Source: Minisyncoccota bacterium (GTDB lineage Bacteria > Patescibacteriota > Minisyncoccia > Phycocordibacterales > JAACPR01). Taken from it: 64,000 bases of DNA. The notes under the pieces are model-generated. The model was given only the letters and a program-made list of their open reading frames with translations. It did no database searches and was not told the origin of the DNA. Positions 1,896 through 47,750 of this stretch are shown piece by piece (the first letter of the stretch is position 1; each line of letters starts with the position of its first letter). Location of the stretch: NCBI GenBank assembly GCA_041674225.1, contig JBAYWG010000001.1:254667-318666 (forward strand). The letters are read 5' to 3'. The position numbers and the translations under genes are program-made.

Positions 1896-1927
1896 AAAGC
1901 CGCGGACAAAGTCCGCGGCTTTTTGTT
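1893..1927. terminator. rho-independent terminator hairpin, bidirectional (gccgcggac-aaa-gtccgcggc with A-run and T-run flanks)
   Basis: 9-bp GC-rich perfect stem flanked by A5 and T5; identical 21-nt hairpin recurs at 50427-50449. Confidence 0.6.
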
Positions 1928-1939
1928 TTGAATGTATAT

Positions 1940-2057: not shown

Positions 2058-2461
2058 GATATACATCTTCTATTTTATTATATGACTATTGAAGAAAAAA
2101 TGTGTTTTTGTGGTAAAAATTTTATGCATTGCAACCAGTTTGAATGTATCAAAGCGACTTTCAGCATTCCGAACGGGAGTTTGAGCAATTAGTACACCTC
2201 AGCTGAACGTGTTGCCACGCTTATACTTGGTGCCTATCAACCTAATCATCTCTTAGGGCTCTCAAAAGATTTCTAATCTTGAGGTAGGCTTCCTGCTTAG
2301 ATGCTTTCAGCAGTTATCCCTTCCCGACATAGCTACCCGACGATGCCATTGGCATGACAGCCGGTACACCAGAGGTCAGTCCACTCCGGTCCTCTCGTAC
2401 TAGGAGCAGCTCCTCTCAAAAATCAACGCCTACAGCGGATAGAGAACCAACCTGTCTCACG

Positions 2462-2790
2462 CACCTTGCTCACCTATTACTAGGTGGATTGGACTATACT
2501 TTCTTCCCTAAGGAAGGCTGACATGTAGTCTCTACGGGTACATATTGATATGTTTCCCTCGGAATCGTCCTCGCTTAATAGCGATAGGATTTTCCCGATA
2601 TCAGTCAACTAATTCTTGTGTATCACTACACAAAACCGCCGTGATGTTGGTTCTATATTTTGGGACAGAAAGACAAAAATAATTCTTCTCGATAACCCTC
2701 GAAGGGATTCAGATTGATTCACACTTCAAGTTTTTTGTTTCTATATGTTTGACATCTTGGTCAGCACACATTCACACTCTTCAAGTGTGA
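2462..2790 (-). ncRNA. putative ORF-less group I intron in 23S at E. coli position L2593 (I-CreI homing site)
   Basis: 329-nt insertion exactly between ...GGGUUCAGACCGU and CGUGAGACAGGU; 5' exon ends in U and intron ends in G; contains R-like (GAGACUAca) and S-like (GUAUAGUCC) group I core elements. Confidence 0.55.
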
Positions 2791-3451
2791 ACGGTCTGAA
2801 CCCAGCTCGCGTATCTTTTTAATTGGCGAACAGCCAAACCCTTGGGACCTTCTTCAGCCCCAGGATAAGATGAGCCGACATCGAGGTGCCGAACACCGCC
2901 GTCGCTATGGACGCTTAGGCGGTACCAGCCTGTTATCCCCAGGGTAACTTTTATCCGTTGAGCTTCCTCCGCATCTAAAGCGAAAGGTCGGATCGCTATG
3001 CTCCACTTTCGTGTCTGCTCGGCATGTACGCCTTGCAGTTAAGCTCTCTTATGCCATTACACTATCGGCACGGTTTCCATTCGCGCCTAGAGAACCTTTA
3101 GGCCCCTCCGTTACAATTTAGGAGGGTAGCGCCCCACTAAAACTACCCACCAGATACTGTTCCCCGACGTTTTTGCCGTCGAGGTTAGACTATATATTCT
3201 CAAAGGATGGTATTTCACTGTCGACTCCATATCAACCGAAATCAATACTTCAAAGTCTCCCATCTATTCTGCGCAGAGAGAACATATACCCAATATCAAG
3301 CTGCAGTAAAGCTCCTGGGGTCTTTCTGTCCTGCTGTAGGTAGCCGGCATCTTCACCGGCATCGCATTTTCACCGAGCAAGTCCCCGAGACAGTTTCCCA
3401 GTCGTTACGCCATTCGTGCGCGTCTGAACTTACCAGACAAGGAATTTCGCT

Positions 3452-3752
3452 CTCTCGTGTTAACTCTATGTCGCCATAGAGGACGGACTCTATTTTACTT
3501 GATTTTACTCAAGCACTAGCATTTGGTCTCTGAGGATTCTAAAAATATTTTCATAAATTTAGTCTTTCCTGCTGATTGTCCGCACTCTAAAATTTTCACT
3601 GATTAAATAAATTTAATCTAGTATTTAAAGATACTCGGAGTTTCCAGCATATGGCTAGTTTTAAAAAGGCAGTTACTATTCTTTGTAACATGCTGTCTAT
3701 CACACCTTTATAACAGCCCCAATTCTTGGTAACACAATAAATTATGCTACCA
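3452..3752 (-). ncRNA. putative ORF-less group I intron in 23S at E. coli position L1931
   Basis: 301-nt insertion between ...GGUCCUAAGGU and AGCGAAAUUCC; 5' exon ends in U and intron ends in G; contains R-like (GGAAAGACUAAAU) and S-like (AUAGAGUCC) elements. Confidence 0.55.
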
Positions 3753-3787
<35 letters not shown>

Positions 3788-5226
3788 CGGGGCTTATATC
3801 GGTCAGCACTAAACACTCTACGCACGATTATGATTCAAAAATTTGAATCATGCGCACAGTGTTTAGCACCGCCAATATTTAACCTTCCGGCATTGGTCAG
3901 GCGTCACCCCCTATACATCCTCTTACGAGTTAGCAGGGAGCTGTGTTTTTGATAAACAGTCGCCAGGAATCTTTAGCTGCGGCCCACTTGCGTGGGCAGA
4001 CCTTATACCTAGGGTACGGTCGCTGTTTTGCCGAGTTCCTTGGGGACCCCTCACTCGTTCGCCTTGGTCTTCTCGACCTGACTACCTGTGTCGGTTTGCG
4101 GTACGGTCTCATTATGCTTAACCTTAGAAGCTTTTCTTGGAAGGCTCTTCGCTTAAGTTTGATGGCCTAAGCCACCATTCAGCCGACACCGAGTCTAACA
4201 TGAGCGGATTTGCCTACTCAATAACTCTAGTGCTAGCAACGTAAATCCAGTAATACGCTTAAACTTGTGTCCTCCGTCCCTCCATCGGAACATAATGAGG
4301 TGATGGAATATTAACCATCTGTCCATCGGATTCGACTTTCGTCATCTCCTTAGGCCCGACTAACCCTTCGCTGATTAACATTGCAAAGGAAACCTTAGTC
4401 TTTCGGCGTGCAGGAATCTCACCTGCATTGCGGTTACTTGTGCCAACATTCTTACTTCCACACGCTCCACGATGGGTCACCCCTTTCGCTTCAACGCAGA
4501 GTGGAATACTCTCCTACCAATCCACATGTGCGAACACACGTAAATTCCTCGTTTTCGGTAATACACTTAGCCCCGATCATTTGTGGCGCGTCATCTCTGA
4601 GCGAGTGAGCTGTTACGCTATCTTTAAAGGATGGCTGCTTCTAAGCCAACCTCCTCGGTGTCTCTGAAATGTCACAACCTTTCTTGCACTTAGTGTATAT
4701 TTTGGGACCTTAAACGGAGATCTGGGCTGTTTCCCTTTTGACCGACGGAGCTTAGCCCCCGTGGTCTAACTGCCATGCTCTTAATCTCTGGTATTCGGAG
4801 TTTGATAGGTCTAACGAGATTGCTCCCTGTTTAGACCTTCCAGTGCTCTACCCCCAGAAGGAACACATGACGCCAACCCAAAAGCTGTTTCGGAGAGAAC
4901 CAGCTATTACCAAGCTCGATTAGCTTTTCACTTCCTACCACAAGTCATCCGAAGGAGTTGAACTACCTACCGGTTCGGGCCTCCATTTATGTTTCCATAA
5001 ACTTCACCCTGCTCATAGCAAGCTCGCTTGGTTTCGGGTCTTATACGTACTACTAACGCGCTATTCACACTCGGTTTCCCTACAGCTCCAACCGACTAAG
5101 GTCTTAGCTTGCAGTACATATAAACTCGTTGGCTCATTCTTCAATAGGCACACCGTCACGGATCAAGTCCGCTCCGATTCCTTGTAGGCATATGGTTTCA
5201 GGTCTATTTCAACGCCCTTGTCGGGC

Positions 5227-5268
<42 letters not shown>

Positions 5269-5933
5269 TTCTAATATATTTAGCCTTGCCAGTTAGTTCT
5301 GGCGGATTCACCCGAGGTATTCGTGTCTCGGGCTACTCAAGAACAAACACAAGAGAGATTAAATTTTTTCGTATACGGGACCATTACCCTCTGGGGTACA
5401 ACTTTCCAGTTGTTTCTACTAAAATTTAATTTTGTAACTCTCCTCGTGAAGAAGTGTTTGTCTTACAACCCCAATCATACAAGTACGATTGGTTTGGGCT
5501 TTTCCCCTTTCGCTCGCCGCTATTGAGGGAATCAATATTTTTTTCTATTCCTCCAGGTACTGAGATGTTTCACTTCCCTGGGTAAGCATTACAAGTCAAG
5601 CTCGTAACGACCTATAAAAGGTCGGGTTTCCCCATTCAGAAATCTCCGGATCAAAGGTTGCTAGGCACCTCCCCGAAGCTTATCGCAGCTTTACCACGTC
5701 TTTCATCGCTATTAGAAGCCTAGGCATCCACCATACGCCCTTAGCACTCCCGTCAGGAATGCTAAAAACCGCTTTTTCTACATTTTTTGGTTCAATGCAA
5801 TTTCTACCTACATTTTTTCTTCAATTGTCGAAGATCTCATCGAACCCTCTTCCGGTTCGGCCTCACCATTCTGAACCGAAGTTCAAAATGACGAGGTCGA
5901 ATCACAAGTCACTTTTGTCTATATTTTATTTTT

Positions 5934-17537: not shown

Positions 17538-18704
17538 TTACTCTAGTATTATAGCAGAAGTTTTCGTTGCTAAATCCCCAGTTGGAAAAAATAGATTCAA
17601 AGATTGATTTGCTCGGAAAAAATCCTCGGAATTATCACTGAACAGTGTCTCATCAAAAGTGATCTTTGCTTTAGGACTCAAAATAGTGTCTTGTGGAAAA
17701 GTAAAATCCGCCTTTTTATCTTCAGATTTTATTCGCCATAAACCTATGTTTATTTCATTTGAATCTTGATTTTCTATTTCAATTCCGTTTTCCTTTATAT
17801 TTAAAGCTAATTTGGGTTTTGCTACATAAACAATAGTCCTAGAGACTGCTTGCCTTATACCCGACACAGCATTTAAAACAACGTTATAAACACCTTCATT
17901 TTTGTAAAAATGCTCAATTTTCTTGCCTCTTTTTTCGTTTCCATCACCAAAATTCCAAAGATATTTGGCTCTGTGTAAACCTTTGTTTTCTCCTGTTTTG
18001 ACCTCAAAAATTATTGGTGATTTTATACTCGACAATCTTTCTCTGCCAATCGAAATCTCCAATTCTGTGACTTCTTTTGCTTTGACAGCAGAAGCGACTG
18101 AGGAATGTGAAGATATGTTTGTGATTGTAGTATTTTCGGTGGTGGTTGCGTTTGATTCTATTTGTTCTGGTGTTGATGCTTCTGTGGCATTTGGCAATCC
18201 TGGGGTTGGTTTTGCGCTAATTAGAAACTCTTCTTTAAACTGCAAAGAATTTCCATCTCCTTTTGCACCCAAAGTGTCCGAATAGCTAATTTCGTGTATT
18301 TTTTGGCCACTAGAATTTATCAAAACTAAAACTTCGCCAGTATTTGTAAGGCTAAAAACACTATCAAAAAGCGTACCGCTAAAATCTGGATTATCAATTA
18401 AAAACTTTTCATCGTTATCGGCAATAATTGCATAACCACCAGCCGGAATAACGGCATTTCCAAAGATTAATTTCACAGCATGATTGACCGAGCTTTCTAA
18501 TAATTTCCAGTTGGAGAAATCTATATCACTAGAAGTATTGTTGTACACCTCCACCCACTCCCTACCAGAATCAGTCCCAGAAACATCGTACATAATCTCG
18601 TTTATTTTCATTGCAAAAAGTGGGCTCGGAGAAATCAGGACCACCAGTATTAATAAAATATTTACTACTTTCGTTTTTATTTTTTGAATTTTTATAGGTT
18701 TCAT
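17538..18704 (-). CDS. lamin-tail-domain (LTD) containing secreted/membrane protein
   Basis: After the signal/TM (VVNILLILVVLISPSPLFA): INEIMYDVSGTDSGREWVEVYNNTSSDIDFSNWKL...GGYAII, typical LTD; the ORF-track N-terminus overlaps the terminator hairpin, so start at the internal Met. Confidence 0.6.
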   Translation of the reverse strand: MKPIKIQKIKTKVVNILLILVVLISPSPLFAMKINEIMYDVSGTDSGREWVEVYNNTSSDIDFSNWKLLESSVNHAVKLIFGNAVIPAGGYAIIADNDEKFLIDNPDFSGTLFDSVFSLTNTGEVLVLINSSGQKIHEISYSDTLGAKGDGNSLQFKEEFLISAKPTPGLPNATEASTPEQIESNATTTENTTITNISSHSSVASAVKAKEVTELEISIGRERLSSIKSPIIFEVKTGENKGLHRAKYLWNFGDGNEKRGKKIEHFYKNEGVYNVVLNAVSGIRQAVSRTIVYVAKPKLALNIKENGIEIENQDSNEINIGLWRIKSEDKKADFTFPQDTILSPKAKITFDETLFSDNSEDFFRANQSLNLFFPTGDLATKTSAIILE

Positions 18705-18773
18705 TGCGCAAAGAATATCAGAATGAACCTTAAATATATTTAAAGAAGTATTAAAAGTTAAAAAAGAAAAACA

Positions 18774-18802
18774 AAAAGCCGCCCTTGCGGGCGGCTTTTT
18801 GC
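18774..18802 (-). terminator. rho-independent terminator (gccgccc-ttgc-gggcggc) after the 18853-20838 gene
   Basis: GC stem with flanking A/T runs. Confidence 0.6.
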
Positions 18803-18852
18803 CTATCAATACTAGATTAGTTATGTGAAATTTAATTCACTATAAGTAATTA

Positions 18853-28723: not shown

Positions 28724-31700
28724 CTAAAGGCTATTTATAAAATTCCTAGTAATCGAACCAAAGTACCCCACCGCAGGAACAATCCCTACAGACATCTGGA
28801 AGTTGGATAGTGCAATCTGAGTTAATCTTCCAAAGAATGTAGTTTCTTGGCCGATTGATCCAGGACCTGATGTTGCAACTGTGAATCCTTGTGTATTTAG
28901 GAATTGTTGAAGTAGTTTCACTTCAGGGTCTTCATCGTTTAGTTCTAAGTCTTTAGTGAAAGTTGGAGTTTCTTCTGTGGTACTTGTATCACTAGAGAAC
29001 CAAGAATTAAATTCTTCTTTCATCTTTGAAATTAGATCTTGTATTTTTGAAGTGTTCTCTGGTTCAGATTGTATTGTTGATTTAAGTTCTGTTAGTAGTG
29101 AGTCTATTATGGTTGAAACAACTGAAGGTGTATCATCAGATGGAGTGTTGTTTGAAGATGAAGAAGAACCTCCTGATCTACTTCTAGATGATGGTGCTCT
29201 GTTTGTTGGTGTTTCTTCAACAGCTTCTTCTTCTTCGACAGTTTCTTCTGCGGCAGCAACCGTAGTGAAGTTCCATGTTGTTGAATCAGAGATTCCTTCA
29301 AAATAGTTTTCATAGTTATCAGAAACAGCAGTGTTTGGAATAATTATATAGTATGAAGTTCCATTAGATAAATCAGACTCTGGATTGATAGTGATTCTAT
29401 CTAGACCAGTTTGTGATATTTCATCTCCTTCAACATCAATTGTTAGAACTGTTGAGTCATCAGATGTTTTTTTGATAAGGATGTTTCCAGTTCCTACAGA
29501 TATAACTGAATTGAAAATCATGACTAGGTTAGAGTCTATTGCTACGTCTGTTGCGTTGTCTAAAGGTGAGAGGGTTTGAATTGGTGGAGGTGTTGTGTCT
29601 ATAAACAAATCTTTATTTGCAGCAAGGTTTGTAGCAGGTGTGAAGTTCACCATTGCATTACCTTCTTGATCAGCAATCGTTCCTGAGATTGAAGATACTG
29701 TCAAATCATCTGATTCATCACCTGCTTGTACAGTATAGTTACATGTTCCAGTGTCTGCGTTTGATACAGTGAATGTACATGTTCTATCTGTTGTTCCAGT
29801 TTCTAGAGTTACAGTTACGTTTCCAGTTGATGTGACAGCTTCAGAGAATGTTACGTCGATGTCGATCACTTCGCCCACTCCGTATGTACCGTCGGCTTTA
29901 GAAGAAGAAACTGAGGTAATTGTTGGTGCTGTGACGTCGTAGCCGAGGGTGGTGGTGTAGATGTATCCATTATAAGCAGGAGCAGCTAATTTGGATCCAT
30001 CATCAGATGAGGCAATATCGTACCAGTTTCTTAAACCTGCATCTGTTTGAGATATCCAAGTTTGACCCGAATCAGCAGAAACGTATAAATATCCATCATA
30101 TACACCGGCCGCAAGTTTAGTACCGTCTGATGATGATGTAATGCCGTACCAACCTCTTGAACCAGATGAGTTTGAGTTTGTAGTCCAAGTCACACCTGAG
30201 TCTGATGAAGTGTAGATGTATCCGTTGGTAACAGTAGCCGCGAGTTTTGTACCGTCTGATGATGATGTGATCCTCCTCCAATTTCTTGAACCAGATGAAT
30301 TTGAGTTTGTAGTCCATGTAGCACCTGAGTCTGATGAAGTGTAGATGTATCCAGGAGTCGAATCAACAGCAGCTAGTTTAGTTCCGTCTGATGATGATGT
30401 GATACCTTGCCAACCTCTTGAACCAGATGAATTTGAGTTTGTAGTCCATGTAGCACCTGAGTCTGATGAAGTGTAGATGTATCCGTTATATGCAGCAGCA
30501 GCGAGTTTTGTACCATCCTCAGATGAAGTGATACTTTGCCAATTTCTTGAACCAGACGAGTTTGATTGTGTACCCCACGTCGCTCCAGAGTCGGTTGAGG
30601 TGTATATGTATCCACTAGCAACAACTGCGGCAAGTTTAGTACCGTCTGATGAAGAAGTTATGCCAGACCAACCTCTTGAACCCGCATCGGTTCGCTCAGT
30701 CCATGTCGCTCCAGAGTCGGTTGAGGTGTATATGTATCCACCACTAACAGTTGCTGCGAGCTTAGTACCATCAGCAGATGAAGCCATTCTGGTCCACGCC
30801 TTATTACCAGAACTTACATGCTGTGTCCAAGTATTTTCACCCACAACAATATCCTTATTAGAAGAAAGATTTGTAAAACCTACAAAAACACTCATTTCGT
30901 TAAAGAAATTATCTGTAATTGTTCCTGATATTGAAGATACTGCTAAATCAGCAGAAACATCACCTTCTTGCACAGTATAATTACATGTTCCAGTTAATGA
31001 ATTTGCCACTGTAAATGTACATGTTCTGTCTGTTGTTCCAGTCTCTAGTGTGACAGTGACGTTTCCTGTTGAAGTTACAGCTTCAGAGAATGTGACATCA
31101 ATATCGATTACTTCTCCCACAGTATAAGTTCCATCAGCTTTATCTGAAGAGATTGAGGCGACTATTGGTTCTACAACATCTTCAAAAACAGAAACTGCTC
31201 CATAAGACATCGCTCCCACTATTTTTGTTCCAGCACCATCTATTGCTATATATGATAGTTGTTCCACATCTTGCATAACACTCCAAATTGAACCTCCATC
31301 TATAGATATATAAGGACTACTAGCATTACCTGCAGCAGCGACTATTCGACCTCCATCAGAAGACATATCAACATCAGTCCAATTTCTTGAACCTGCACCA
31401 GTTTGCTCAGTCCACGTCACTCCAGAGTTGGTTGAAGTGTAGATGTATCCATTACTTACAATAGCAGCAAGTTTTGTTCCATCATCAGATGATGTGATGC
31501 CAGACCAATTTCTTGAACCAGATGAATTTGAGTTTGTAGTCCACGTCTGTCCAGAGTCGGTTGAGGTGTATATGTATCCTCCATAAACAACAGCAGCGAG
31601 CTTAGTACCGTCTGATGATGATGTGATACCTTGCCAATTTCTTAATCCTGAAGAGTCTCCATTTGTATTCCACGACGCTCCTGAGTCTGATGAAGTGTAG

Positions 31701-32170
31701 ATGTATCCACTACCAGAGACTCCAGCGGCGAGCTTGGAACCATCTGCAGATGATGTGATGCTTGACCAATCTCTTGATCCCGAAGAGTCACCATTTGTTC
31801 TCCATGTTGAACCGGAGTCGTCTGATACATGAATCGGTCCACCCTCTATAACACCTGCCATTATATTACCGTCGTCTGAAACAACTACATCAGCCCATAT
31901 TTGTGAACCGGTTGAGATTTGAGTATGGAAAAAGCTATTATCTGTATCTGTATACCAAATTAAACCACTGACCCCATCATTTGAGTTACCAGAAGCAATA
32001 TAAATACGAGGCTCGTTATCTGCTACATCAACCGCAGACCAATATCCTGGATTTGACATATCTGTAACAGTCCAACTAGCTATCACCTTCTCAAATCCAA
32101 CCTTCAAACTAAAAGCCACTATTAAAAGAAAAAATATTGCTTCGATGATTCGTACTTTTTTATTTTGCAT
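28724..32170 (-). CDS. giant cell-surface protein: about 14 BNR/Asp-box repeat modules, two duplicated Ig-like domains, C-terminal PG_binding_1-like domain
   Basis: Signal/TM N-terminus; about 42-aa modules (SSGSRxWxxITSSxDGTKLAA...GYIYTSxDSGATWTTNSN, SxDxGxTW); the module ADGTYxVGEVIDIDVTFSEAVTSTGNVTVTLETGTTDRTCTFTV occurs twice; C-terminus LLQQFLNTQGF...FFGRLTQIALSNFQ...GYFGSITR. Confidence 0.7.
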   Translation of the reverse strand: MQNKKVRIIEAIFFLLIVAFSLKVGFEKVIASWTVTDMSNPGYWSAVDVADNEPRIYIASGNSNDGVSGLIWYTDTDNSFFHTQISTGSQIWADVVVSDDGNIMAGVIEGGPIHVSDDSGSTWRTNGDSSGSRDWSSITSSADGSKLAAGVSGSGYIYTSSDSGASWNTNGDSSGLRNWQGITSSSDGTKLAAVVYGGYIYTSTDSGQTWTTNSNSSGSRNWSGITSSDDGTKLAAIVSNGYIYTSTNSGVTWTEQTGAGSRNWTDVDMSSDGGRIVAAAGNASSPYISIDGGSIWSVMQDVEQLSYIAIDGAGTKIVGAMSYGAVSVFEDVVEPIVASISSDKADGTYTVGEVIDIDVTFSEAVTSTGNVTVTLETGTTDRTCTFTVANSLTGTCNYTVQEGDVSADLAVSSISGTITDNFFNEMSVFVGFTNLSSNKDIVVGENTWTQHVSSGNKAWTRMASSADGTKLAATVSGGYIYTSTDSGATWTERTDAGSRGWSGITSSSDGTKLAAVVASGYIYTSTDSGATWGTQSNSSGSRNWQSITSSEDGTKLAAAAYNGYIYTSSDSGATWTTNSNSSGSRGWQGITSSSDGTKLAAVDSTPGYIYTSSDSGATWTTNSNSSGSRNWRRITSSSDGTKLAATVTNGYIYTSSDSGVTWTTNSNSSGSRGWYGITSSSDGTKLAAGVYDGYLYVSADSGQTWISQTDAGLRNWYDIASSDDGSKLAAPAYNGYIYTTTLGYDVTAPTITSVSSSKADGTYGVGEVIDIDVTFSEAVTSTGNVTVTLETGTTDRTCTFTVSNADTGTCNYTVQAGDESDDLTVSSISGTIADQEGNAMVNFTPATNLAANKDLFIDTTPPPIQTLSPLDNATDVAIDSNLVMIFNSVISVGTGNILIKKTSDDSTVLTIDVEGDEISQTGLDRITINPESDLSNGTSYYIIIPNTAVSDNYENYFEGISDSTTWNFTTVAAAEETVEEEEAVEETPTNRAPSSRSRSGGSSSSSNNTPSDDTPSVVSTIIDSLLTELKSTIQSEPENTSKIQDLISKMKEEFNSWFSSDTSTTEETPTFTKDLELNDEDPEVKLLQQFLNTQGFTVATSGPGSIGQETTFFGRLTQIALSNFQMSVGIVPAVGYFGSITRNFINSL

Positions 32171-38430: not shown

Positions 38431-40374
38431 TTACTGCACAACTTTTGAATTAGTTAGGTCTGAAAGTCTCTCCATATCGGTTGTTGGATTTTCTGATGTG
38501 TGAGTTGTAGAAGTTTGAGTAAAGGTATCAGTCCCAATGAAAGTTGGGCTCATTATCAAGGCTGGAGTTTGCCCAACCTGACTAGCTGAAGGAGTGAAAG
38601 TAAGTTGCATAGAAACAGATCTGCTCGGATCAATAAAACCAACATGCTCCCGAACATCACCCAAATCCCATTCGATAGTTCTAGAAGATGGTATATATGT
38701 TACTTTTTCATTACTTGGCGAAATCATATTATTCCACCGTACATAAGGAGGAATAACGGCTGTAACTTTTCCATTTTGAAGAAGGTTTGATGAGTTTGAA
38801 AGACTCAATGTGACAGTATAATTTGTATCATTTTCAACTTTCGGAGGGATTGGTCCACTGTTTTGGAAAGGTCCACCCGCGTATGATGTAACAGCACTCA
38901 ACACCACATCAGATTTTAATTTAATTCTTTTTGCAGCATCAACTTTTATTTCCTCAGGGACAGAGTCTTCTGAAATTCTTTTTCCAGTAATGCTTGCATT
39001 CACAATTACTTCCGGATTTTTAAAAACAGCTTGTCGAGTAGCTAAAGTTTTTGTTCTAAAATTAAAACTTAAAGTCTGTGTCTCATCCACAGCAATAGAG
39101 GTGAAAAATTCCGGGCTTGTAACTTTATTCCAAGTAATAGTATTGTCACTAGAATTAAAGAATCCGTCAGATACTTCCAGACTAGCATCATCTAAAACTT
39201 CTCCGTCGAGTTTTAAAATAATCTGAGGCTCTGTCACCACACTTCCAGTATTGTTTTTATAAGTTAATCGGCCACTAATTTGCTTTCCACCCTCTCTAAC
39301 CAAATCCACACCCAATTCCCCATCAATAGAAATATCCATAGCAAGGAAAGGTTTTATTAAAGAAATTGATTTTGGAAGTGTTGTAAATTTAACTTTAAAA
39401 TCTTCTGATTCACTATTTTCAGACAGACCAACATTCCATTTAAAAACTCTTTCTTCATTGTTTTGACCTATCAAAGATCCCCGCACTGTAAATGTTTTTG
39501 ATTCTTGTGGTGCAAGTTTTTCAAAATGCCAAACATTATTTCCCTGCGATGGAGACACTGTTGATTGAGAAAAGTTAAAACCAAAAGGATATTCAGCGGT
39601 TACTAAAATATTTTCTAAACTACTATTTGAATTTGAAGAAACTGTCACATCAAAAGCTAGAGCCTGACCAGATGTAATTTCTTTTACAGTATCCACCACA
39701 AGACGAATCGGTGAAGATTGCAAAGCCAGAGTGAAAGTTTTTTTAGTCTCAAATATTGCATTCGAGTTTGGCATTCTGTATTCTGCTCGCACTTCAATTT
39801 CTTTTTGATCACCCTCTTGTCCGAAAAGAGTTGCTGAATACGTCTTCTTAACAATTGAATTTGGCGGAATATCCCCCAAACCTTCTCTTATACGAGGAAG
39901 ATCTGTGGTTTGATCAACAGTTTTTGTACCGTCTGGAAATTCTAAAACAATATCAACTGTTTGAATCGCAAAAGGATTTCTGTTTTGAATAATAATATCT
40001 AGAGACATGTCTTCTCCTCCGCCCACAGCAACTGGACCAACAACAGAAACATCAACAGTACTTGAATATACTGCAGTGCCACTACCATTGAATTTATAAA
40101 AAGCAAAACCTAGTGCACCGATGAAAAAAATAAATGCGAAAATAAATATTTTTGTAAAAAAAGACATTTTGTTTGATTTAACTGTTTTCGAAAAACTATC
40201 TTGTTCAAGATCCCCCCAAGAATCTGGTACGTCTTTCACTTCTCTTTTTAAATTTTGCCTTGTACGAATTTGGAATTGAGTATTAGGAGAATAAAGCTTT
40301 TCTTGAAGCTTTGTTACACGACTTTTGACGTTTTTATCATTATTTAAATTAGACAAATCTAATGGCTCGTTCAT
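38431..40374 (-). CDS. hypothetical large single-pass membrane / extracellular protein
   Basis: 647 aa with one TM after about 75 cytoplasmic residues, then a beta-rich ectodomain; no family recognised. Confidence 0.5.
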   Translation of the reverse strand: MNEPLDLSNLNNDKNVKSRVTKLQEKLYSPNTQFQIRTRQNLKREVKDVPDSWGDLEQDSFSKTVKSNKMSFFTKIFIFAFIFFIGALGFAFYKFNGSGTAVYSSTVDVSVVGPVAVGGGEDMSLDIIIQNRNPFAIQTVDIVLEFPDGTKTVDQTTDLPRIREGLGDIPPNSIVKKTYSATLFGQEGDQKEIEVRAEYRMPNSNAIFETKKTFTLALQSSPIRLVVDTVKEITSGQALAFDVTVSSNSNSSLENILVTAEYPFGFNFSQSTVSPSQGNNVWHFEKLAPQESKTFTVRGSLIGQNNEERVFKWNVGLSENSESEDFKVKFTTLPKSISLIKPFLAMDISIDGELGVDLVREGGKQISGRLTYKNNTGSVVTEPQIILKLDGEVLDDASLEVSDGFFNSSDNTITWNKVTSPEFFTSIAVDETQTLSFNFRTKTLATRQAVFKNPEVIVNASITGKRISEDSVPEEIKVDAAKRIKLKSDVVLSAVTSYAGGPFQNSGPIPPKVENDTNYTVTLSLSNSSNLLQNGKVTAVIPPYVRWNNMISPSNEKVTYIPSSRTIEWDLGDVREHVGFIDPSRSVSMQLTFTPSASQVGQTPALIMSPTFIGTDTFTQTSTTHTSENPTTDMERLSDLTNSKVVQ

Positions 40375-40861: not shown

Positions 40862-41458
40862 CTACAACTGACTTTCGCGGATTCCTGAGTTTATAACCTT
40901 CAAAGCATCTCTTCGCTCAGCTTTCATTTTTTCTACGACTTCCCCATCCCATGTATCATTCAAAATATAAAAATTAATATTTTCATTTGAACCTATGTAT
41001 CCTAGTCGATTTAAAATTCTTAAAACAATCACTGCTTCGATATCCAAAATTAATTCTTTACTAAAATTTTCTACATCTTGATTTTGTTTTAAGAAAATAA
41101 TTCCAGAATGAATTATTTCAAATAATTTTTCATCTCCCGTTTCACCAGCCACGAGTCTTTCAAGTAATTTAAAAATTCTTGCAATCACAGAAACTATTTC
41201 TGTTTTTGATTTAAGGAAATTACTTTCCAATGGAGCAGCGTTTGTGAGCCTCCAAACTCCTTTTCCGCGCACAAGCGACACATGACACATAGATAGAGTC
41301 TGTGTCCCGAAACGCAGTTTTGATTTTTCATATCTTATTCCTTGCGCCACAGCACGAATCAAACCAAGTTCTTCGGTAAAAAGAGTTAGCATTGCATCGG
41401 CTTCTCCGTGTGGAGTATTTTTTAATACAAAAGCATTTGTTTCGTAAATATGATGCAT
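40862..41458 (-). CDS. recO: DNA repair protein RecO
   Basis: N-terminal OB-fold pattern (ETNAFVLKNTPHGEADAMLTLFTEELGLIRAVAQGIRYEKSKLRF). Confidence 0.65.
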   Translation of the reverse strand: MHHIYETNAFVLKNTPHGEADAMLTLFTEELGLIRAVAQGIRYEKSKLRFGTQTLSMCHVSLVRGKGVWRLTNAAPLESNFLKSKTEIVSVIARIFKLLERLVAGETGDEKLFEIIHSGIIFLKQNQDVENFSKELILDIEAVIVLRILNRLGYIGSNENINFYILNDTWDGEVVEKMKAERRDALKVINSGIRESQL

Positions 41459-41459
41459 T

Positions 41460-44400
41460 TTATGAAACCTTTTTAATTTTTACAGCAATATCAATATCGC
41501 CCACTTTCACAGTTTCTCCGTCATTATCTTCAAACTTAATTTCTTTTGCACGAACTGATTTTTGAATTTCATTAACAAAATCCCCTACTTCTATTTTTGC
41601 AGAAGCCGAAACAATCATTGATATTTCATCATTTGGTTTGTAGCCAGATGTTTTTCGAAGTTGTTGAATAAATCTAATTAGCTCTCGAGCATTTCCTTCG
41701 AGTCGTAATTCTTCGGTAAGGTTTGTATCAAGAGACACTTCTGAGTCTTGATTTATATTAAACAAAACATCCTTAACATTTAATTCGTCTTTCAAAATTT
41801 CCAACAAATCATTTTTGTTTTTCAATTCTTCTTTTTTAAGAGTCACTGAAGCAAGTGGTTGTCGAACCTTGATTCCAACTTTTGTTCTTTCGTCTAGAGC
41901 TCGTGTCACTGTGTCTCGCAAAACTTGCATGCTAGAAATAATTTTCTCGTCTGACTTTTTAAGTTGTGGCCAAGAATCTAAATGGACACTTTCAAAATCA
42001 TTTTTTTCTCTCACTTTTTGATAAATATCTTCAGCAATAAAAGGTGTAAACGGAGCAATAAGTTTTGATAAGTTCTTCAAAACAAATTTTGTTGTTTGAG
42101 CTGCAAAAACAGCGTCTTCATTTTCTTCATCGAAGTTTTTAAATCTGTCTCGTGAACGACGAATATACCAAGTTGATAAATCATCCACAAAATCCATAAA
42201 CGGCCGAGTAGCTCTGTCTATTTCATAATTATCCAAACTCACTGTGACTTGATTTTGTAACTCAGAAAGCCGAGATAGAATCCATTGATCCAAAATGTTT
42301 GTACTTTCTTTTGCAACTTCAGAATTTTTAGAAAAATCTTTATACATCTCATAGAATGAAACTACATTATCTAATCTTGAAATCAGTTTGCTAGCGATTT
42401 CGGCAACTCCCTTTTCTGAAAAAGCCACGTCATCAGATTTCACTGCAGGTGAAGACATCAAGAAATATCTCAAAGAATCTGCGCCAGTTTTATTTAAAAC
42501 AGTGGATATATCAGGAAAATTATTTAGACTCTTCGACATTTTTTTACCATCTTCCGCCAACACAAGACCATTTACAACAACATTTTTATACGGCGCTCGT
42601 CCAAATAAAGCAGTATTCAAAACTAGCAATGAATAAAACCAACCACGAGTTTGATCTAAACCTTCAGCAATAAAATCCGCAGGATAATTTTTTGACTTTT
42701 TAAACAAACCAGAATCCGGACTAAATCTTTCTTTATTTGCAGGGTAATAATTTGAAGCATATGGAACAGAACCAGAATCCACCCAGGTATCAAAAACATC
42801 TGGAATTCTTTTCATCAATTTTCCGTTTTGCATGAAAGTCACATCATCAATATAAGGACGATGTAAATCAATTTCAAAATTATCATTTAGCGGCAATCTT
42901 GTTGGGATTAATTCCAAAGTTTTTCCTGTTGCAATAAAATCTTCTTTATCTTCTTTTATCGCGATTGTTTCTTCTTTATTTAAACCTCCGTTTGATGCAA
43001 CTAGCGCCCAAGTTGGATACTCATGAGTTACAATTATAATTCTTTTATTTTCATTTTGAGAATCAATTTCTTTTAGAAAATTCCCTACTCTTTTTTTCAA
43101 ATCTAAAACAGTTTCTGCACCATCGGCACATTTTTCAAATCTATCTTGTAGAGTTGGAAGATAATCTCGGTACTCAGAAATCGGTCGACCGTCAAAACCA
43201 GTTTGAATTTCTTTCAGTCTTTCATCAACAATAATTTTTTCTATCGGATATCCGATTTTTTCAGCAACAATTTCTGCTGTTTCTTTTGTCCGGAAAAGCG
43301 GAGAGCAATAAATCTCATCAAATTTTTCATCTGCAAATTTCTCCCCCACTCTCGCCACATCATCCTTTCCTTTTTGAGTTAAATGACTCGGAGAATTATT
43401 ACTGTCAGAAGTTCTGTTTTCCAAATTGTGATCTGCTTCACCATGACGCATTACCACAAATGTGTTTGTGCTTTTTGTTTTTTCTTTTAGATCATCTATT
43501 GAACCAATCACAGCAATCTCATTTCCATCTTCAGATTTCCATATTGGAATCGGTGTTCCCCAAAATCGTGCACGAGAAACAGACCAATCTTTCGCATCTT
43601 TCAACCAATTTCCAAAACGATTTTTTCCAACAAAATCCGGAGTCCAATTTACTTTTTCATTTTCTTTAACAATTTTATCTTTTATAGACGTCACCTTTAT
43701 GTACCAAGAAGACATCGCGTAATTTAAAAGTGGCGCATCTGTTCTCCAACAATGAGGATACGAGTGAGTATATTTTTTCTTATCAAACAAGAATCCGTTG
43801 TGTGCTAAATATTTCACAAACTCAATATCTGTTTGCATTGGATCTTCTTTTGGTTTTGCTTGAAGGCCAGCAAATTCTTTTACTTCTGGCTTTATAGTTC
43901 CATCAATTTTTACATGTTGTACAAAAGGTAGATTGTTTTCTTTCCCGAGGTTCAAATCGTCTTCACCAAATGCAGGAGCAATATGAACCACACCAGTTCC
44001 GTCTGTTGTTGTGACAAAATCACCATGATAAATTTTCCAACCATTTTCACGATTTTCTAAAGTTGCATCGTCAATATAACAATTGAAAGGTGGTGTGTAT
44101 TTCTTCCCTAACAATTCTTCTGCAGAAATTTCTGAAACCACTTCATGCTCTTTTCCTACAAAAACTTTTTCAACTAAATCTTTTGCTGCAATATAAATCG
44201 CATTTTCAAACTTAACTTTCACATATGAAAGATTTTTATTTATCGCAAGAGCGACATTTCCAGGAAGTGTCCACGGAGTTGTTGTCCAAGCCAAAACAAA
44301 AGTTCCCTTCTCTTCTGCCAATTCAAATTTCACTGTCGCAGATAAATCTGTGATGTCTTTGTATGCTTGATTTACTTCGAAGTTTGAAAGTGCGGTCTCA

Positions 44401-44960
44401 AGTAAAGGAGAAATGTGCATTGATTTGAAACCTTCATATGCCAAACCTTTTTGATGCAAGGTCTTCCACATCCACCAAACAGATTCCATATATTTTGAAT
44501 CCATTGTGATGTAGTTATCTTCAAAATCAACCCAACGACCAGTTCGTGGAATTATTTTTTTCCATTCATCAAGATATCGAAACACACTTGCTCGAGCAGC
44601 TTCGTTAAAATTTTTAACTCCAAAATTTTCTACATCTTGTTTTGTTTTAAGATTATTTTCTTTTTGAATTAAATTTTCAATCGGCAAACCATGTGTATCC
44701 CAACCCCATCGACGAGAAACTTTATAACCCGTCATTGTTTTGTATCTTGGGATTATATCTTTGATTGTTCCAGGTAGAATGTGTCCGTAGTGTGGCAACC
44801 CTGTTGCAAAAGGAGGACCATCATAAAAAACAAAATCACCTTTTGTGGATTCTCTTTCGATAGTCTTTTTGAAAATATTATTTTCTTCCCAAAAATTAAG
44901 GATTTTCTCTTCCCTTTGAGCTATTTGACTTTTATTAGTTTCGTCAGCTTCATTTGTCAT
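41460..44960 (-). CDS. ileS: isoleucyl-tRNA synthetase with an inserted histidine-phosphatase-like domain
   Basis: PPFATGLPHYGHIL (HIGH), KMSKSLNN, and editing/anticodon-binding regions; an extra segment of about 180 aa (residues about 500-680) carries RHGEADHN and VTHEY motifs. Confidence 0.9.
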   Translation of the reverse strand: MTNEADETNKSQIAQREEKILNFWEENNIFKKTIERESTKGDFVFYDGPPFATGLPHYGHILPGTIKDIIPRYKTMTGYKVSRRWGWDTHGLPIENLIQKENNLKTKQDVENFGVKNFNEAARASVFRYLDEWKKIIPRTGRWVDFEDNYITMDSKYMESVWWMWKTLHQKGLAYEGFKSMHISPLLETALSNFEVNQAYKDITDLSATVKFELAEEKGTFVLAWTTTPWTLPGNVALAINKNLSYVKVKFENAIYIAAKDLVEKVFVGKEHEVVSEISAEELLGKKYTPPFNCYIDDATLENRENGWKIYHGDFVTTTDGTGVVHIAPAFGEDDLNLGKENNLPFVQHVKIDGTIKPEVKEFAGLQAKPKEDPMQTDIEFVKYLAHNGFLFDKKKYTHSYPHCWRTDAPLLNYAMSSWYIKVTSIKDKIVKENEKVNWTPDFVGKNRFGNWLKDAKDWSVSRARFWGTPIPIWKSEDGNEIAVIGSIDDLKEKTKSTNTFVVMRHGEADHNLENRTSDSNNSPSHLTQKGKDDVARVGEKFADEKFDEIYCSPLFRTKETAEIVAEKIGYPIEKIIVDERLKEIQTGFDGRPISEYRDYLPTLQDRFEKCADGAETVLDLKKRVGNFLKEIDSQNENKRIIIVTHEYPTWALVASNGGLNKEETIAIKEDKEDFIATGKTLELIPTRLPLNDNFEIDLHRPYIDDVTFMQNGKLMKRIPDVFDTWVDSGSVPYASNYYPANKERFSPDSGLFKKSKNYPADFIAEGLDQTRGWFYSLLVLNTALFGRAPYKNVVVNGLVLAEDGKKMSKSLNNFPDISTVLNKTGADSLRYFLMSSPAVKSDDVAFSEKGVAEIASKLISRLDNVVSFYEMYKDFSKNSEVAKESTNILDQWILSRLSELQNQVTVSLDNYEIDRATRPFMDFVDDLSTWYIRRSRDRFKNFDEENEDAVFAAQTTKFVLKNLSKLIAPFTPFIAEDIYQKVREKNDFESVHLDSWPQLKKSDEKIISSMQVLRDTVTRALDERTKVGIKVRQPLASVTLKKEELKNKNDLLEILKDELNVKDVLFNINQDSEVSLDTNLTEELRLEGNARELIRFIQQLRKTSGYKPNDEISMIVSASAKIEVGDFVNEIQKSVRAKEIKFEDNDGETVKVGDIDIAVKIKKVS

Positions 44961-45050: not shown

Positions 45051-45404
45051 TTAGGCACAAAACCTCTCCGAATCTTCCATAGGAAACCCGTGTTCAGAAA
45101 GAATCTGAGCAGCCTCCTCAAACTGAGGAAGAACATCGGTTCCATAGTTTTGAAGAGCCTTCGAAATATGGAGAAAGATACTTGTGGCAAATTGATGTGG
45201 TGATCGCCGAAAAAAACTTCTCGGCTCTAAACCATCAGGTTGATAGGTTCGAGGGAGTTCAGAAATAACAGTTCTTTTAATTGGCTCAAAAGTAACCTCA
45301 ACTTTAACCCAATCTTTATTGGGAAGTTGTGCTTCACAAATCAGTTCGTGAATCATTTCATTTTTACAAACAGAAATGAATAATTTTTCTAGTTCTTGTG
45401 CCAT
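45051..45404 (-). CDS. hypothetical protein (117 aa), monocistronic
   Basis: ORF with its own terminator; GC-elevated. Confidence 0.45.
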   Translation of the reverse strand: MAQELEKLFISVCKNEMIHELICEAQLPNKDWVKVEVTFEPIKRTVISELPRTYQPDGLEPRSFFRRSPHQFATSIFLHISKALQNYGTDVLPQFEEAAQILSEHGFPMEDSERFCA

Positions 45405-45497
45405 AATTTTTTAAGGGGTTCAATTCAAATACAAAATTACAACTAAAAACAATTGCAGTCAACACAGAACTGAAATGATTTTGAAAACATAAGAGAA

Positions 45498-45520
45498 AAG
45501 ACCGACACGGAGTGTCGGTC
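45498..45520 (-). terminator. rho-independent terminator (agaccgacac-gga-gtgtcggtct)
   Basis: 10-bp stem with a T-run on the minus strand. Confidence 0.65.
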
Positions 45521-45536
45521 TTTTATTTTGGACTTA

Positions 45537-45956
45537 TCAGAACTTCTCGCAAATAGCGTAATCTTCATCACGAAACGCATACGCAATCCTGCGAATTCCT
45601 TTGATCCAACGACCATCTCGCTTGTATATACAAACAACATAATCATCACCATCTGTCTCGCGGGACAGACAGAACCTGGTTCCCCAGAAAAAATTAAAAC
45701 CATTTTCCCATTCTGAAGGAATCAGCTCCTGATTACTCATAAAAAAATCAGCAACACAGGCATTCAAAGGTTTCTTATTAATCACCTCATCGTAGAGTTT
45801 TGCCCCTTTGATGTGAAAGGTTTTTTGCACATCAGATCTCCATCGATCAATTTTTTCAGGGCACAAATCCACAATACCTCCCCGGTCATGAGCGGAGATT
45901 ATCATTCCACCAGGAATGATTGGTGTAGGATCACAATCAATAGTAATTGTTTTCAT
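45537..45956 (-). CDS. hypothetical protein (139 aa), monocistronic
   Basis: ORF with its own terminator; GC-elevated. Confidence 0.45.
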   Translation of the reverse strand: MKTITIDCDPTPIIPGGMIISAHDRGGIVDLCPEKIDRWRSDVQKTFHIKGAKLYDEVINKKPLNACVADFFMSNQELIPSEWENGFNFFWGTRFCLSRETDGDDYVVCIYKRDGRWIKGIRRIAYAFRDEDYAICEKF

Positions 45957-46034: not shown

Positions 46035-47750
46035 CTACATCCTCTCCGGCAATCCAATTCCCAAAATTTCCAAACCGTTTTGCAAAACAGTCAGAGTAGC
46101 TTGTGTGATCCCAACTTTGTACGAAGTCCCGATATTTTGTTTATCAATAATTTGTTCAGAAGAATAGAAAGAATTAAATTCACTAGATAATTCTGTGAGG
46201 TATGTGATTAATTTTTGCGGAGCTAGTTCATCATAAGCTTCGGCAACAACTTCTGGAAAACGATTTAATATTTTTTCAATATTTTTCACTTGCCAATCTT
46301 CTGGTTGAGTTCCCCCCACTAAACCAAGTCCTTCATTTTCTGCTTTTCTCAAAATAGATGAAGCTCGCATTGCGGTGTATTGAAGATACGGTCCAGAATC
46401 GCCTTCGAAAGAAAGTGATTTATCAAAATCAAAGATGATATCTTTTCCAATTGATTGTTTTAAAATTGAATATTTTAAAGAACCAAGGGCAACTTTTTCT
46501 AGGACTTGCTCTTTAATTTCCTCTTCATATTCTCTGTCTGCATTTTTTTCAGAAACTTTTGTTCGCACATCCTCAATCAAACTTTCAGCAGAAATTACAT
46601 TACCTGTACGAGAACTCATTTTTCCTGAAGGTAATTTCAACATTCCGTGAGAAATATGTGTTGTCTTCGCTTCTAACTCTGGAAAAATTTCTTGCATCGC
46701 TTTCAAGACCACTTTGAAATAATGCTCTTGCTCATTTGCGGTGATCACAATCGAACGATCGTATGCATAGGTTTCAGCTTTAATTTTTGCCAAACCAAGT
46801 TCTTTTGCTTCGTATGTCGGAAGTCCCATTGAGTTTATGAAAACACGCGTGTGCAGTCCGTGCTTTTCACCTTTATAAACCACAGCTCCATCCCCCATTT
46901 CAAAAATTCCTGTTGGAATATTTTTTTGCACAACATCTTTTCCAAACCCAGCAGTTTCACTTTCAAGAAAATATAAATCAAATTTAGTTCCCAATCTTTT
47001 GTAAACAATTTCAAAAGCCTCCAAGCTCCACTTTCTTCCTTTTTCATAATAAATATTTAACTCATGATTTGATTTTTCAAAAATCATTTTATTAGTCACT
47101 TCAATTTCTTTTTTTGCAGATTCATCCACTTCATATTCATGAGAACCAAAAGAATACGCATTTGAAAGAAAACGTACTTTTATATCTAAAGGATCATCAT
47201 CGTGCGGAAAGCCTGCGCGATTTTGAATCATTCCCCACACAGCCATTGCCACATGCAGACCCACATCACCTTGATAAACAGCTCTCTTCACTTCCGCGCC
47301 GTTCCATTCGGATATTTTGCAAATTGTTTCGCCAATAAAATTACTCATCATGTGTCCAATATGAAGAATCTTAAAAGGATTTGGATCTGTGAATTCGATA
47401 ATAGTTTTTTGATTATTTAAACGATTGTTTCGTCCGTAGTTTTTTCCCTGATTGATTACATCGTGTACTACTTCTTCAAAAAATTTGTCAGACAAATGAA
47501 AATTGATAAACCCAGGTCCAGCCACCTCAACTTTTTTTACTTCAAAATCAAAACTTGCTTCTAGACCTCTCTGCATTTCATTCGCAACTTCAACTGGATT
47601 CTTTCCAAGACTTTTTCCCAGAATCATCGCCACGTTCGTAGAATAATCACCATTTGCCAAATCCGCAGGATGCTCCACTACAAAATCAACCTCAGGCAAC
47701 CCAAGCCCTGTGATTATTTCTTTTATTACGCCCTTTATTTTCTCTTGCAT
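46035..47750 (-). CDS. argS: arginyl-tRNA synthetase
   Basis: ArgRS N-terminal domain (PADLANGDYSTNVAMILGKSLGKNPVEVANEM), class I core, and DALR-type C-terminus. Confidence 0.85.
   Translation of the reverse strand: MQEKIKGVIKEIITGLGLPEVDFVVEHPADLANGDYSTNVAMILGKSLGKNPVEVANEMQRGLEASFDFEVKKVEVAGPGFINFHLSDKFFEEVVHDVINQGKNYGRNNRLNNQKTIIEFTDPNPFKILHIGHMMSNFIGETICKISEWNGAEVKRAVYQGDVGLHVAMAVWGMIQNRAGFPHDDDPLDIKVRFLSNAYSFGSHEYEVDESAKKEIEVTNKMIFEKSNHELNIYYEKGRKWSLEAFEIVYKRLGTKFDLYFLESETAGFGKDVVQKNIPTGIFEMGDGAVVYKGEKHGLHTRVFINSMGLPTYEAKELGLAKIKAETYAYDRSIVITANEQEHYFKVVLKAMQEIFPELEAKTTHISHGMLKLPSGKMSSRTGNVISAESLIEDVRTKVSEKNADREYEEEIKEQVLEKVALGSLKYSILKQSIGKDIIFDFDKSLSFEGDSGPYLQYTAMRASSILRKAENEGLGLVGGTQPEDWQVKNIEKILNRFPEVVAEAYDELAPQKLITYLTELSSEFNSFYSSEQIIDKQNIGTSYKVGITQATLTVLQNGLEILGIGLPERM

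Follow-up and report, generated by a model that had tools for sequence, protein, structure and literature searches.

What is a complete phosphatase domain doing inside the catalytic body of a tRNA synthetase? The question is raised by ileS, the gene for isoleucyl-tRNA synthetase (IleRS), in a 64,000-nt stretch of contig JBAYWG010000001.1 from a Minisyncoccota bacterium (assembly GCA_041674225.1; this whole stretch is hereafter the window). From the letters of the window alone, the original prediction had placed a histidine phosphatase domain, described as phosphoglycerate mutase (PGAM)-like, between the IGSIDDL and DLHRP blocks of the synthetase, at 42920-43465. An extra segment was indeed found between these blocks, spanning 42873..43484 on the reverse strand and enclosing the predicted interval, and the assignment to the histidine phosphatases was borne out by a strong Pfam match (PF00300, E=1.6e-31). 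The parts of the gene are given below, with residues numbered on its product; conservation refers to an alignment of 81 insert-bearing IleRSs, and equivalences to the IleRS2 of Priestia megaterium (8C8U) and the phosphatase PhoE of G. stearothermophilus (1EBB/1H2E).

41460..44960, reverse strand: ileS, coding for a type-2 IleRS with a nested phosphatase, 1166 aa (list of open reading frames, ORFs; TIGR00392; Pfam; PDB match).
43485..44960, reverse strand: N-terminal part of IleRS, aa 1-492, with the first Rossmann half, the editing domain in connective peptide 1 (CP1), CP2 and the first hairpin of CP3 (aligned to 8C8U residues 10-475).
44781..44792, reverse strand: HYGH motif, aa 57-60 (by motif position).
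42873..43484, reverse strand: nested insert, aa 493-696, made up of an N-linker, the His_Phos_1 domain and a C-linker, within CP3 (alignment to 8C8U).
42969..43457, reverse strand: Pfam His_Phos_1 (PF00300) match, aa 502-664 (109.9 bits, cutoff 21.7, E=1.6e-31).
43440..43448, reverse strand: RHG motif, with R505, H506 (predicted phospho-accepting nucleophile) and G507, equivalent to the RHG of PhoE (1EBB).
43425..43427, reverse strand: N512, phosphate-pocket Asn, equivalent to PhoE Asn16 (77/81; PhoE alignment).
43290..43292, reverse strand: R557, second phosphate-binding Arg, in SPLFRTKET (81/81; PhoE alignment).
43209..43211, reverse strand: E584, predicted general acid, in DERLKE (79/81, the other two having Asp), equivalent to the Glu of DERLRE in PhoE.
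43023..43025, reverse strand: H646, second catalytic His, in VTHE (81/81), equivalent to THG of PhoE.
41460..42872, reverse strand: C-terminal part of IleRS, aa 697-1166 plus the stop codon (aligned to 8C8U residues 485-1028).
42528..42542, reverse strand: KMSKS motif, aa 807-811 (by motif position).

PhoE, whose type is marked by a broad activity on monophosphates of aryl compounds, sugars and nucleotides, was the best PDB sequence match of the insert (E=8e-13, ca. 27 % identity). R505 and H506 were present in all 81 sequences and G507 in 80 of them, and two further positions of the insert were near-invariant (E616, 80/81; R624, 81/81). The excised insert segment matched PF00300 with E=5.4e-33, and an AlphaFold2 (AF2) model of the isolated insert, with a predicted local distance difference test (pLDDT) score of 91.8 and a predicted template modeling (pTM) score of 0.89, showed the alpha/beta fold of the PGAM type, as an independent domain with the intact RHG...H core that the original prediction had proposed to look for. 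As far as its sequence tells, the insert is a member of branch 1 of the histidine phosphatase superfamily with the full catalytic set, and the nested phosphatase is apparently still active. It evolves about 1.6 times faster than the IleRS core, with a pairwise identity over the 81 sequences of 36 % for the insert vs. 51–57 % for the Rossmann halves.

The domain belongs to a phosphatase subfamily of CPR (Candidate Phyla Radiation) bacteria with the hallmark N-x-Y/F-x-x-x-RHG, and nested forms also carry a conserved PHN C-linker; the insert domain re-enters IleRS straight after its last strand. Residue N499, within KSGNxY, was considered as a "neck" specific to nesting and discarded, because free-standing members have the same N-x-Y motif. 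The insert measures 195–217 aa in 80 of the 81 homologs, the other having a 169-aa insert of the short variant also found in P0013 and P0019, in which ca. 40 residues of the cap are missing and DERLRE is directly followed by ...SE...R, with the RHG and the second His kept. In the full-length form, the specificity cap (aa 585-615) contains only motifs that are generic for the family (G588, aromatic 589, G591, K/R592, E596 and aromatic 597/601/608).

Is the nested domain then a mutase? The 2,3-bisphosphoglycerate-dependent phosphoglycerate mutases (dPGM) are characterized by a long specificity cap, conserved basic substrate residues, an Asn that follows the second His and a tail at the C-terminus. 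The insert has none of these hallmarks: only 62 aa separate E584 from H646, an RR pair is not conserved, position 648 varies and there is no tail. Additionally, the window protein scored below the curated cutoffs of the archaeal dPGM model NF038349 (83.8 vs. 225), which was its top NCBIfam match of the phosphatase type, and of the dPGM models TIGR01258 (31 vs. 81.7) and NF010713 (27.6 vs. 305). The term PGAM-like is hence appropriate for the superfamily and fails at the level of the mutases. A nested domain supplying a glycolytic dPGM activity apparently missing in some Parcubacteria would agree with that top match and with the failure to detect PGM in several shallow Parcubacteria clades (Jaffe et al., 2020; PMC7304191); nevertheless, this explanation was rejected on account of the curated cutoffs and the signature residues, and we consider it very improbable. 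The scores were also below cutoff for the CobC models TIGR03162 (79.7 vs. 162.9) and NF011580 (49.5 vs. 250), the PspA model NF045917 (60 vs. 350) and the RNase H/acid phosphatase model NF005567 (74 vs. 326), as well as for ileS_w_GNAT (NF040702, 321.8 vs. 1999), and Pfam identified no GNAT domain in the window protein.

The host of the domain is a type-2 IleRS. The 1166-aa ORF exceeded the cutoff of the ileS equivalog TIGR00392 (852.5 bits, cutoff 621.4) and matched Pfam tRNA-synt_1, Anticodon_1 and DUF5915, with the PF00133 match split in two by His_Phos_1. Its closest solved relative is 8C8U (E=6e-218), and the top PDB matches were this IleRS2 and eukaryotic IleRSs, as expected for type 2. 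The C-terminal part contains the second CP3 hairpin (DLHRPYIDD), the second Rossmann half, the anticodon-binding domain and the C-terminal DUF5915. In the alignment to 8C8U, aa 492 of the window protein pairs with residue 475 and aa 696 with residue 485, so that a loop of ca. 9 aa is replaced by ca. 204 residues. An ordinary IleRS2 fragment (P0016) has ca. 22 aa between GSIAEL and DLHRP, close to the normal spacing of about 20 aa that the original prediction had assumed, and the strings WGTPIPIW, IGSIDDL, VVMRHGEADHN, CSPLFRTKETAEIV, IIIVTHEYPTWAL and DLHRPYIDD all occur in the window IleRS.

Residue 494 of the window protein pairs with residue 498 of the Candida albicans IleRS (6LDK), whose CP3 is defined as residues 473-534 (PMC7191050), and the insert therefore lies in CP3; for the yeast enzyme, CP3 has been defined as residues 459-526 (PMC7955072). 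By alignment, the phosphatase is nested at the tip of CP3, between both beta-hairpins, in the second Rossmann half. In a full-length AF2 model, residues 500-690 had pLDDT values of 80–98 and the folded insert domain was flanked by strands 473-476/482-484 and 708-711/714-718; with a pTM of 0.54 and the N-terminal 160 aa unmodelled (thin alignment), this model gives no usable inter-domain geometry. The topology of CP3 varies between solved IleRSs, with zinc bound only by that of Thermus (PMC7191050), and in human IARS1 it serves as a docking surface (PMC13439101). A CxxC...CxC zinc knuckle bracketing the insertion point is kept in ca. 35 of the 81 aligned proteins and in the insert-less IleRS of locus L087, and its cysteines are missing from the window IleRS (WKSEDGN / FMQNGK; 43461..43545 and 42816..42846). 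There was no GC discontinuity at the insert junctions.

The synthetase half also looks functional, having intact synthetic and editing motifs: positions K807 and K810 of KMSKS are kept in 80/80 related IleRSs and the key positions of the CP1 editing motifs TTTPWTLP and GTG..H..G.DD in 79/79, and the linker between CP2 and CP3 is likewise conserved across the insert-bearing family. No second ileS was found within the 64-kb window. The NCBI entry for the product, MFA7193576.1, is on a 476-kb contig and reads [quoted passage not shown]. Nested relatives, public for years in metagenome-assembled genomes (MAGs) of the RIFCSP and RIFOXY series, are named just in this way or as "isoleucyl-tRNA synthetase". 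Apparently, the insertion disturbs the automatic naming of MFA7193576.1 although the ileS equivalog cutoff is passed, and the generic name hides the phosphatase, and the IleRS activity, from pathway reconstruction.

Could such a gene be an accident of one assembly? A genome scan with the insert alignment, using one genome per GTDB species, identified the nested insert in at least 113 species-representative genomes. The 80 nested loci that were fetched come from independent assemblies, all of them MAGs of the Patescibacteria/Paceibacteria type, and include Zambryski-, Adler-, Taylor-, Wolfe-, Nomura-, Colwell-, Wildermuth- and Yanofskybacteria and Minisyncoccia. Every one of them (80/80) has a single uninterrupted frame of ca. 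[quoted passage not shown] When 1.84 billion representatives were searched exhaustively with the insert in HMMER, 709 matches were obtained at E<=1e-10, of which the best 150 were examined; among the top matches listed, 104 of the 166 domain-bearing proteins had an IleRS core, nearly all with the domain at the site used in the window, as determined by local HMM mapping. This survey was seeded with the phosphatase domain and its counts are lower bounds. A word-indexed protein search, in which fusions could not show, retrieved only short free-standing proteins, none longer than ca. 530 aa.

An assembly chimera, an excised intein-like element or a degenerate insert, for which the unusual architecture alone speaks, has consequently a next to negligible probability. 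To the extent that sequence data can tell, a chimera or misassembly is ruled out by the one frame in 80/80 independent loci and the uniform composition, and an intein by the absence of Hint/intein matches in Pfam and by the junctions (K/S-G-N...PHN-E/D), which lack Cys/Ser/Thr nucleophiles; the N-terminal junction reads K-S-x-N and the residue following PHN is E, D or K. The near-invariance of the catalytic residues in 81 diverged sequences rules out a degenerate pseudo-enzyme and disfavors the degenerate structural insert that the original prediction had kept among its options. Neither the lack of a profile match nor a chimeric join, either of which was to count against that prediction, was found.

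Where the phosphatase may have come from is suggested by the genes around ileS, which in the window are the following:

46035..47750, reverse strand: argS, 571 aa, upstream neighbor of ileS (ORF list; conserved argS-(phosphatase)-ileS-recO locus).
40862..41458, reverse strand: recO, 198 aa, 1 nt downstream of ileS (Pfam RecO_N, E=1.6e-16).

This arrangement recurs among the nested loci: of those assessable, 51 of 59 have argS upstream of ileS and 52 of 66 have recO downstream of it, in both cases on the strand of ileS, and the median distance to recO is 11 nt. Free-standing members of the subfamily start with Met, have 176–208 aa and the same N-x-Y/F-x-x-x-RHG hallmark, and are named PhoE or "histidine phosphatase family" in their source records. 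In locus L087, the order is argS, small ORFs, phosphatase, ileS (955 aa, insert-free and with an intact CP3), a 178-aa ORF and recO; in L093, it is argS, phosphatase (gaps of 3 and 1 nt), insert-free ileS (931 aa), a 154-aa ORF and recO; and in L095, phosphatase, insert-free ileS (949 aa) and recO. In the contig of P0161, argS overlaps the phosphatase gene, and L082 contains an argS::phosphatase fusion followed by recO. All the informative free-standing contexts, a tally that leaves out the uninformative ones of P0076 and P0087, match the neighborhood found in the window. Furthermore, 79 of the 80 nested loci have no second phosphatase copy inside ca. 6 kb, and the 64-kb window contains none besides the nested one. 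The simplest reading is that the nested phosphatase derives from a gene that adjoins ileS elsewhere, in a series leading from operon neighbor to end fusion or nested domain.

In a neighbor-joining tree without support values, the site-A inserts, the free-standing CPR forms and the forms fused to ArgRS and Sua5 fell in one subfamily, site-B copies were set apart and ValRS copies clustered together; the separation of the site-B and ValRS copies suggests several independent insertion events. Distances of the insert and the core were significantly, if weakly, correlated (Mantel r=0.22, 0 of 2000 permutations), which is compatible with co-inheritance and does not prove a single origin.

Other observations concern the same locus. 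The sole nested locus with an added histidine phosphatase ORF is L024, where a weak one (51 bits; 1580..2410, forward strand) lies upstream of ileS. In the window, the interval between argS and ileS (45051..45956, reverse strand), where other lineages encode the free-standing phosphatase, holds two ORFs without Pfam matches, one of 117 aa with a homolog in 1 of the 80 related loci and one of 139 aa with a homolog in none of them; its GC content is ca. 0.40, vs. ca. 0.34. P0282, a phosphatase from Paceibacterota that stands free and belongs to the wider subfamily, occurs on 17 contigs; its gene is situated 10 nt downstream of a P-loop kinase gene of the KTI12/AAA_33 type and is followed by a gene for a class II ribonucleotide reductase, an arrangement seen at L089 4272..5333 and also in L090 and L091. 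P0282 and this kinase may form a kinase-phosphatase pair in a context of nucleotide metabolism.

Does the domain have any preference for its hosts? Its occurrence proved much wider than the original prediction had envisaged, taking in other sites of IleRS, ValRS, ArgRS and Sua5/TsaC besides the free-standing operon genes. Several IleRSs with two copies (P0205, P0134, P0157, P0140 and P0173, some with a partial third copy) use three further sites, situated between DLHxxxD and MKRIPxVxDxWF (about residues 713-716 of the window protein), ahead of PADFIAEGxDQTRGW (about 751-755) and where the anticodon-binding domain begins (about 875-886); six contigs, the longest of 1.06 Mb, contain the form P0173. 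A valyl-tRNA synthetase (ValRS), P0085 (L084/L085 366..3851), which was found in two assemblies, contains four phosphatase copies: a single one within the CP2 region and a tandem of three behind WGHRIPVWY, the equivalent of CP3. Its best NCBIfam match is valS, with 411 bits, which is under the equivalog cutoff because the end of the contig cuts the protein short. A C-terminal copy is carried by an arginyl-tRNA synthetase (ArgRS; P0209, argS with 405 bits vs. a cutoff of 261.65) and by a Sua5/TsaC threonylcarbamoyl-AMP synthase (P0185, 146.8 vs. 123.2). The RHG, or RHA, is kept in every extra copy. Domains of other kinds also occur besides the phosphatase: IleRS P0178 has an AAA_18 P-loop kinase-like domain (aa 747-863), and IleRS P0193 has a GNAT domain and an in-frame tyrosine transposase associated with repetitive extragenic palindromes (REP) (aa 326-472 and 921-1065), the latter inside the region of the editing domain (NF047646, 81.3 bits vs. 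a cutoff of 80). Entire domains seem to use the class Ia synthetases of the CPR as landing pads.

Such tolerance would be expected if the phosphatase were carried without any coupling to aminoacylation, as a housekeeping enzyme for small molecules (similar to PhoE or to phosphoserine phosphatases) that was first a neighbor and was then fused or nested in a shrinking genome, with CP3 as a tolerant loop. The unrelated GNAT, AAA_18 and REP-associated transposase domains nested in CPR IleRSs, together with the NCBIfam model for ileS with GNAT, agree with this, as do the faster evolution of the insert relative to the core and a cap lacking specific conserved substrate residues. In the known fusions of His_Phos_1, for example RNase H/acid phosphatase, we are aware of no proven coupling, which also counts in its favor. 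CP3 is, besides, solvent-exposed and topologically variable among solved IleRSs (PMC7191050, PMC13439101). However, the subfamily has been coupled independently to four enzymes of tRNA pathways that convert ATP to an adenylate, at four or more IleRS sites and with tandem amplification, and the free-standing gene lies between argS and ileS, with gaps of 1–8 nt, in every informative context. This pattern, which comes from a survey seeded with the phosphatase, exceeds a random expectation. Uncoupled carriage is the main alternative to the reading that we favor and appears to us rather unlikely.

The identity of the partners also bears on whether the substrate could be a tRNA. A phosphatase removing a 2′- or 3′-phosphate (or an opened 2′,3′-cyclic phosphate) from damaged tRNA 3′ ends, and forming an end-healing module with a P-loop kinase where there is one, was also among the options of the original prediction as far as action on phosphorylated tRNA ends is concerned. 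It would suit hosts that are all tRNA enzymes (IleRS, ValRS, ArgRS, and TsaC of the N6-threonylcarbamoyladenosine pathway), the placement of CP3 in the catalytic body, the KTI12/AAA_33-type kinase neighbor and nested AAA_18, and a partner with a weak resemblance to AlkB (27 bits, under the cutoff). Nevertheless, the close structural neighbors of the domain are all small-molecule enzymes, and we know of no member of the superfamily acting on RNA ends. Additionally, two to four tandem copies, at sites ranging from CP2 to the anticodon-binding domain, are ill-suited to a macromolecule whose handling depends on geometry; TsaC itself is not known to bind tRNA; and the kinases are not demonstrably related to one another. 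Grouping the kinase-like domain of P0178 and the neighbor kinase of P0282 in one family was in fact rejected, the two showing P-loop similarity only (E=0.03). We consider this function improbable. More improbable still is a phosphatase acting in cis on the synthetase, clearing inhibitory phosphorylation by toxin kinases of the HipA/HipT type that hit class I aminoacyl-tRNA synthetases (aaRSs) and conferring a built-in immunity.

The reading that we favor is that an active phosphatase, derived from an operon gene and nested in IleRS, is linked to adenylate chemistry; we advance it tentatively, as coming close to probable. In the Paceibacteria lineage of the window, the phosphatase cistron would have been relocated into ileS, and the phosphatase would as a result be made 1:1 with IleRS and be held on its surface. 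A phosphomonoester or a terminal phosphoanhydride would donate its phosphoryl group to H506; binding of the phosphate would fall to R505, R557, N512 and H646, with E584 as the proton donor for the leaving group. The substrate would be a small, diffusible phosphorylated product of adenylate chemistry, in a first guess AMP or other nucleoside monophosphate (NMP) or, alternatively, pyrophosphate (PPi) or the terminal phosphate of a nucleoside diphosphate (NDP), and its local removal would favor tRNA charging. A substrate of this kind is made the most likely by the coupling, in two to four tandem copies, to enzymes that form an adenylate and PPi from ATP and release AMP (IleRS, ValRS, ArgRS and Sua5/TsaC), and the scattered surface sites of the tandem copies point to a diffusible small substrate rather than to a geometry-critical macromolecule. 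Several structural neighbors of the insert act on ribose- or ribityl-5′-phosphate compounds, and P-loop kinase-like partners occur as AAA_18 in P0178 and as the KTI12/AAA_33 gene beside P0282. A nucleotide by-product had also been among the substrates suggested by the original prediction, and the operon and fusion evidence makes the link to aminoacylation more credible than the letters of the window alone could; our confidence in the substrate step (AMP/NMP, or PPi/NDP) is modest.

Several points weigh against this proposal. An AMP phosphatase on an enzyme that produces AMP would waste nucleotides in a presumably salvage-dependent organism, and the precedent for PPi hydrolysis by a branch 1 enzyme is just indirect. 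The literature searched on pyrophosphatases of Parcubacteria held nothing relevant to PPi, in either direction. A cap with only generic motifs gives no prediction of the substrate, and the full-length model (pTM 0.54) does not give the orientation of the domains, so there is no sign of channelling. Linkage in operons and fusions can mean co-expression without mechanistic coupling, the free-standing contexts total only four or five, and the fusions to ArgRS, Sua5 and ValRS are each one protein cluster. Lastly, the domain tree has no support values and the two kinase-like partners have just the P-loop in common. In broader terms, the phosphatase could be a dedicated translation accessory of the CPR, needed near class I synthetases (IleRS, ValRS and ArgRS) and TsaC and fixed as operon neighbor, end fusion or nested domain, where its task would be to break down some phosphorylated by-product or inhibitor of adenylate chemistry (AMP/NMP, PPi, NDP or a phosphorylated antimetabolite), or else to repair tRNA ends or synthetase that have become phosphorylated; this we regard as possible, with some doubt.

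Elsewhere in the window, the 23S rRNA gene (2170..5754, reverse strand) is 3585 nt long vs. 2925 positions in the Rfam model, with ca. 660 nt extra that correspond to insertions or introns; it contains no convincing ORF, the sole one of at least 90 aa being on the opposite strand and apparently spurious. The 5S rRNA follows the 23S rRNA, at 1946..2051. Large surface proteins are predicted at 28724..32170, 38431..40374 and 17538..18809 (all on the reverse strand), with Sortilin/BNR plus Big_5, DUF11, and Lamin-tail plus PKD domains, and a DUF11-like protein downstream of recO is kept in 55 of the 80 related loci.

Catalytic additions other than editing domains are rare in the well-studied bacterial aaRSs, and here a second, unrelated active site has been kept within the catalytic body of the IleRSs of a large uncultured radiation, with the same module repeatedly recruited by other adenylate-forming tRNA enzymes. 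If coupled to aminoacylation, the phosphatase would reveal that translation in ultra-small, energy-poor cells has a missing accessory step, for instance the removal of a product, detoxification or repair; if uncoupled, the locus is still a clean natural case of relocation from gene to domain, with neighbor, fusion and nested states in one locus. The tolerance of CP3 to insertions of 200–800 aa could be useful for synthetase engineering, and genome annotation under-describes the nested IleRSs. Full-text searches of the available library retrieved no paper describing an aaRS with a histidine phosphatase domain, in line with the original suspicion that the architecture was undescribed. What appears to be new is the nested architecture, its breadth and the series from operon to domain, since both component families were already known.

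How, then, does this protein compare with known systems? The phosphatase, with a fold of ca. 190 aa, resembles the compact, ca. 200-aa branch 1 enzymes PhoE (YhfR), PspA, GpgP/Rv2419c, CobC and HFP of the riboflavin pathway. However, PhoE, PspA, GpgP and CobC are free-standing whereas the domain in the window sits within the loop of a different enzyme, scores far under the curated cutoffs for CobC, PspA and dPGM, and has its own N-x-Y/F hallmark before the RHG. The synthetase has the same domain order, motifs and DUF5915-type C-terminus as 8C8U and the Thermus thermophilus IleRS (1ILE), with a core identity of 40–50 %; it differs from both in that the ca. 9-aa CP3 loop has become 204 aa and in the absence of zinc-knuckle cysteines.

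Other multidomain enzymes are near, without being equivalent. The NCBIfam family ileS_w_GNAT (NF040702) is a curated precedent for a bacterial IleRS with an extra catalytic domain, although the inserted domain differs from that of the window; a CPR IleRS, P0193, has both the phosphatase and GNAT. The RNase H/acid phosphatase of the Rv2228c type and MutT1 of M. tuberculosis (Nudix plus histidine phosphatase, 9CXX) are end-to-end fusions with other partners, whereas the insert in the window is nested. The classic second active site in a connective peptide is the CP1 editing domain of IleRS, ValRS and LeuRS, a hydrolase inserted in the Rossmann fold. CP1 is universal and ancient and acts on aminoacyl-tRNA or the adenylate; in contrast, the phosphatase in the window is specific to a lineage, is situated in CP3 and, coming from an unrelated superfamily, has a chemistry of phosphoryl transfer.

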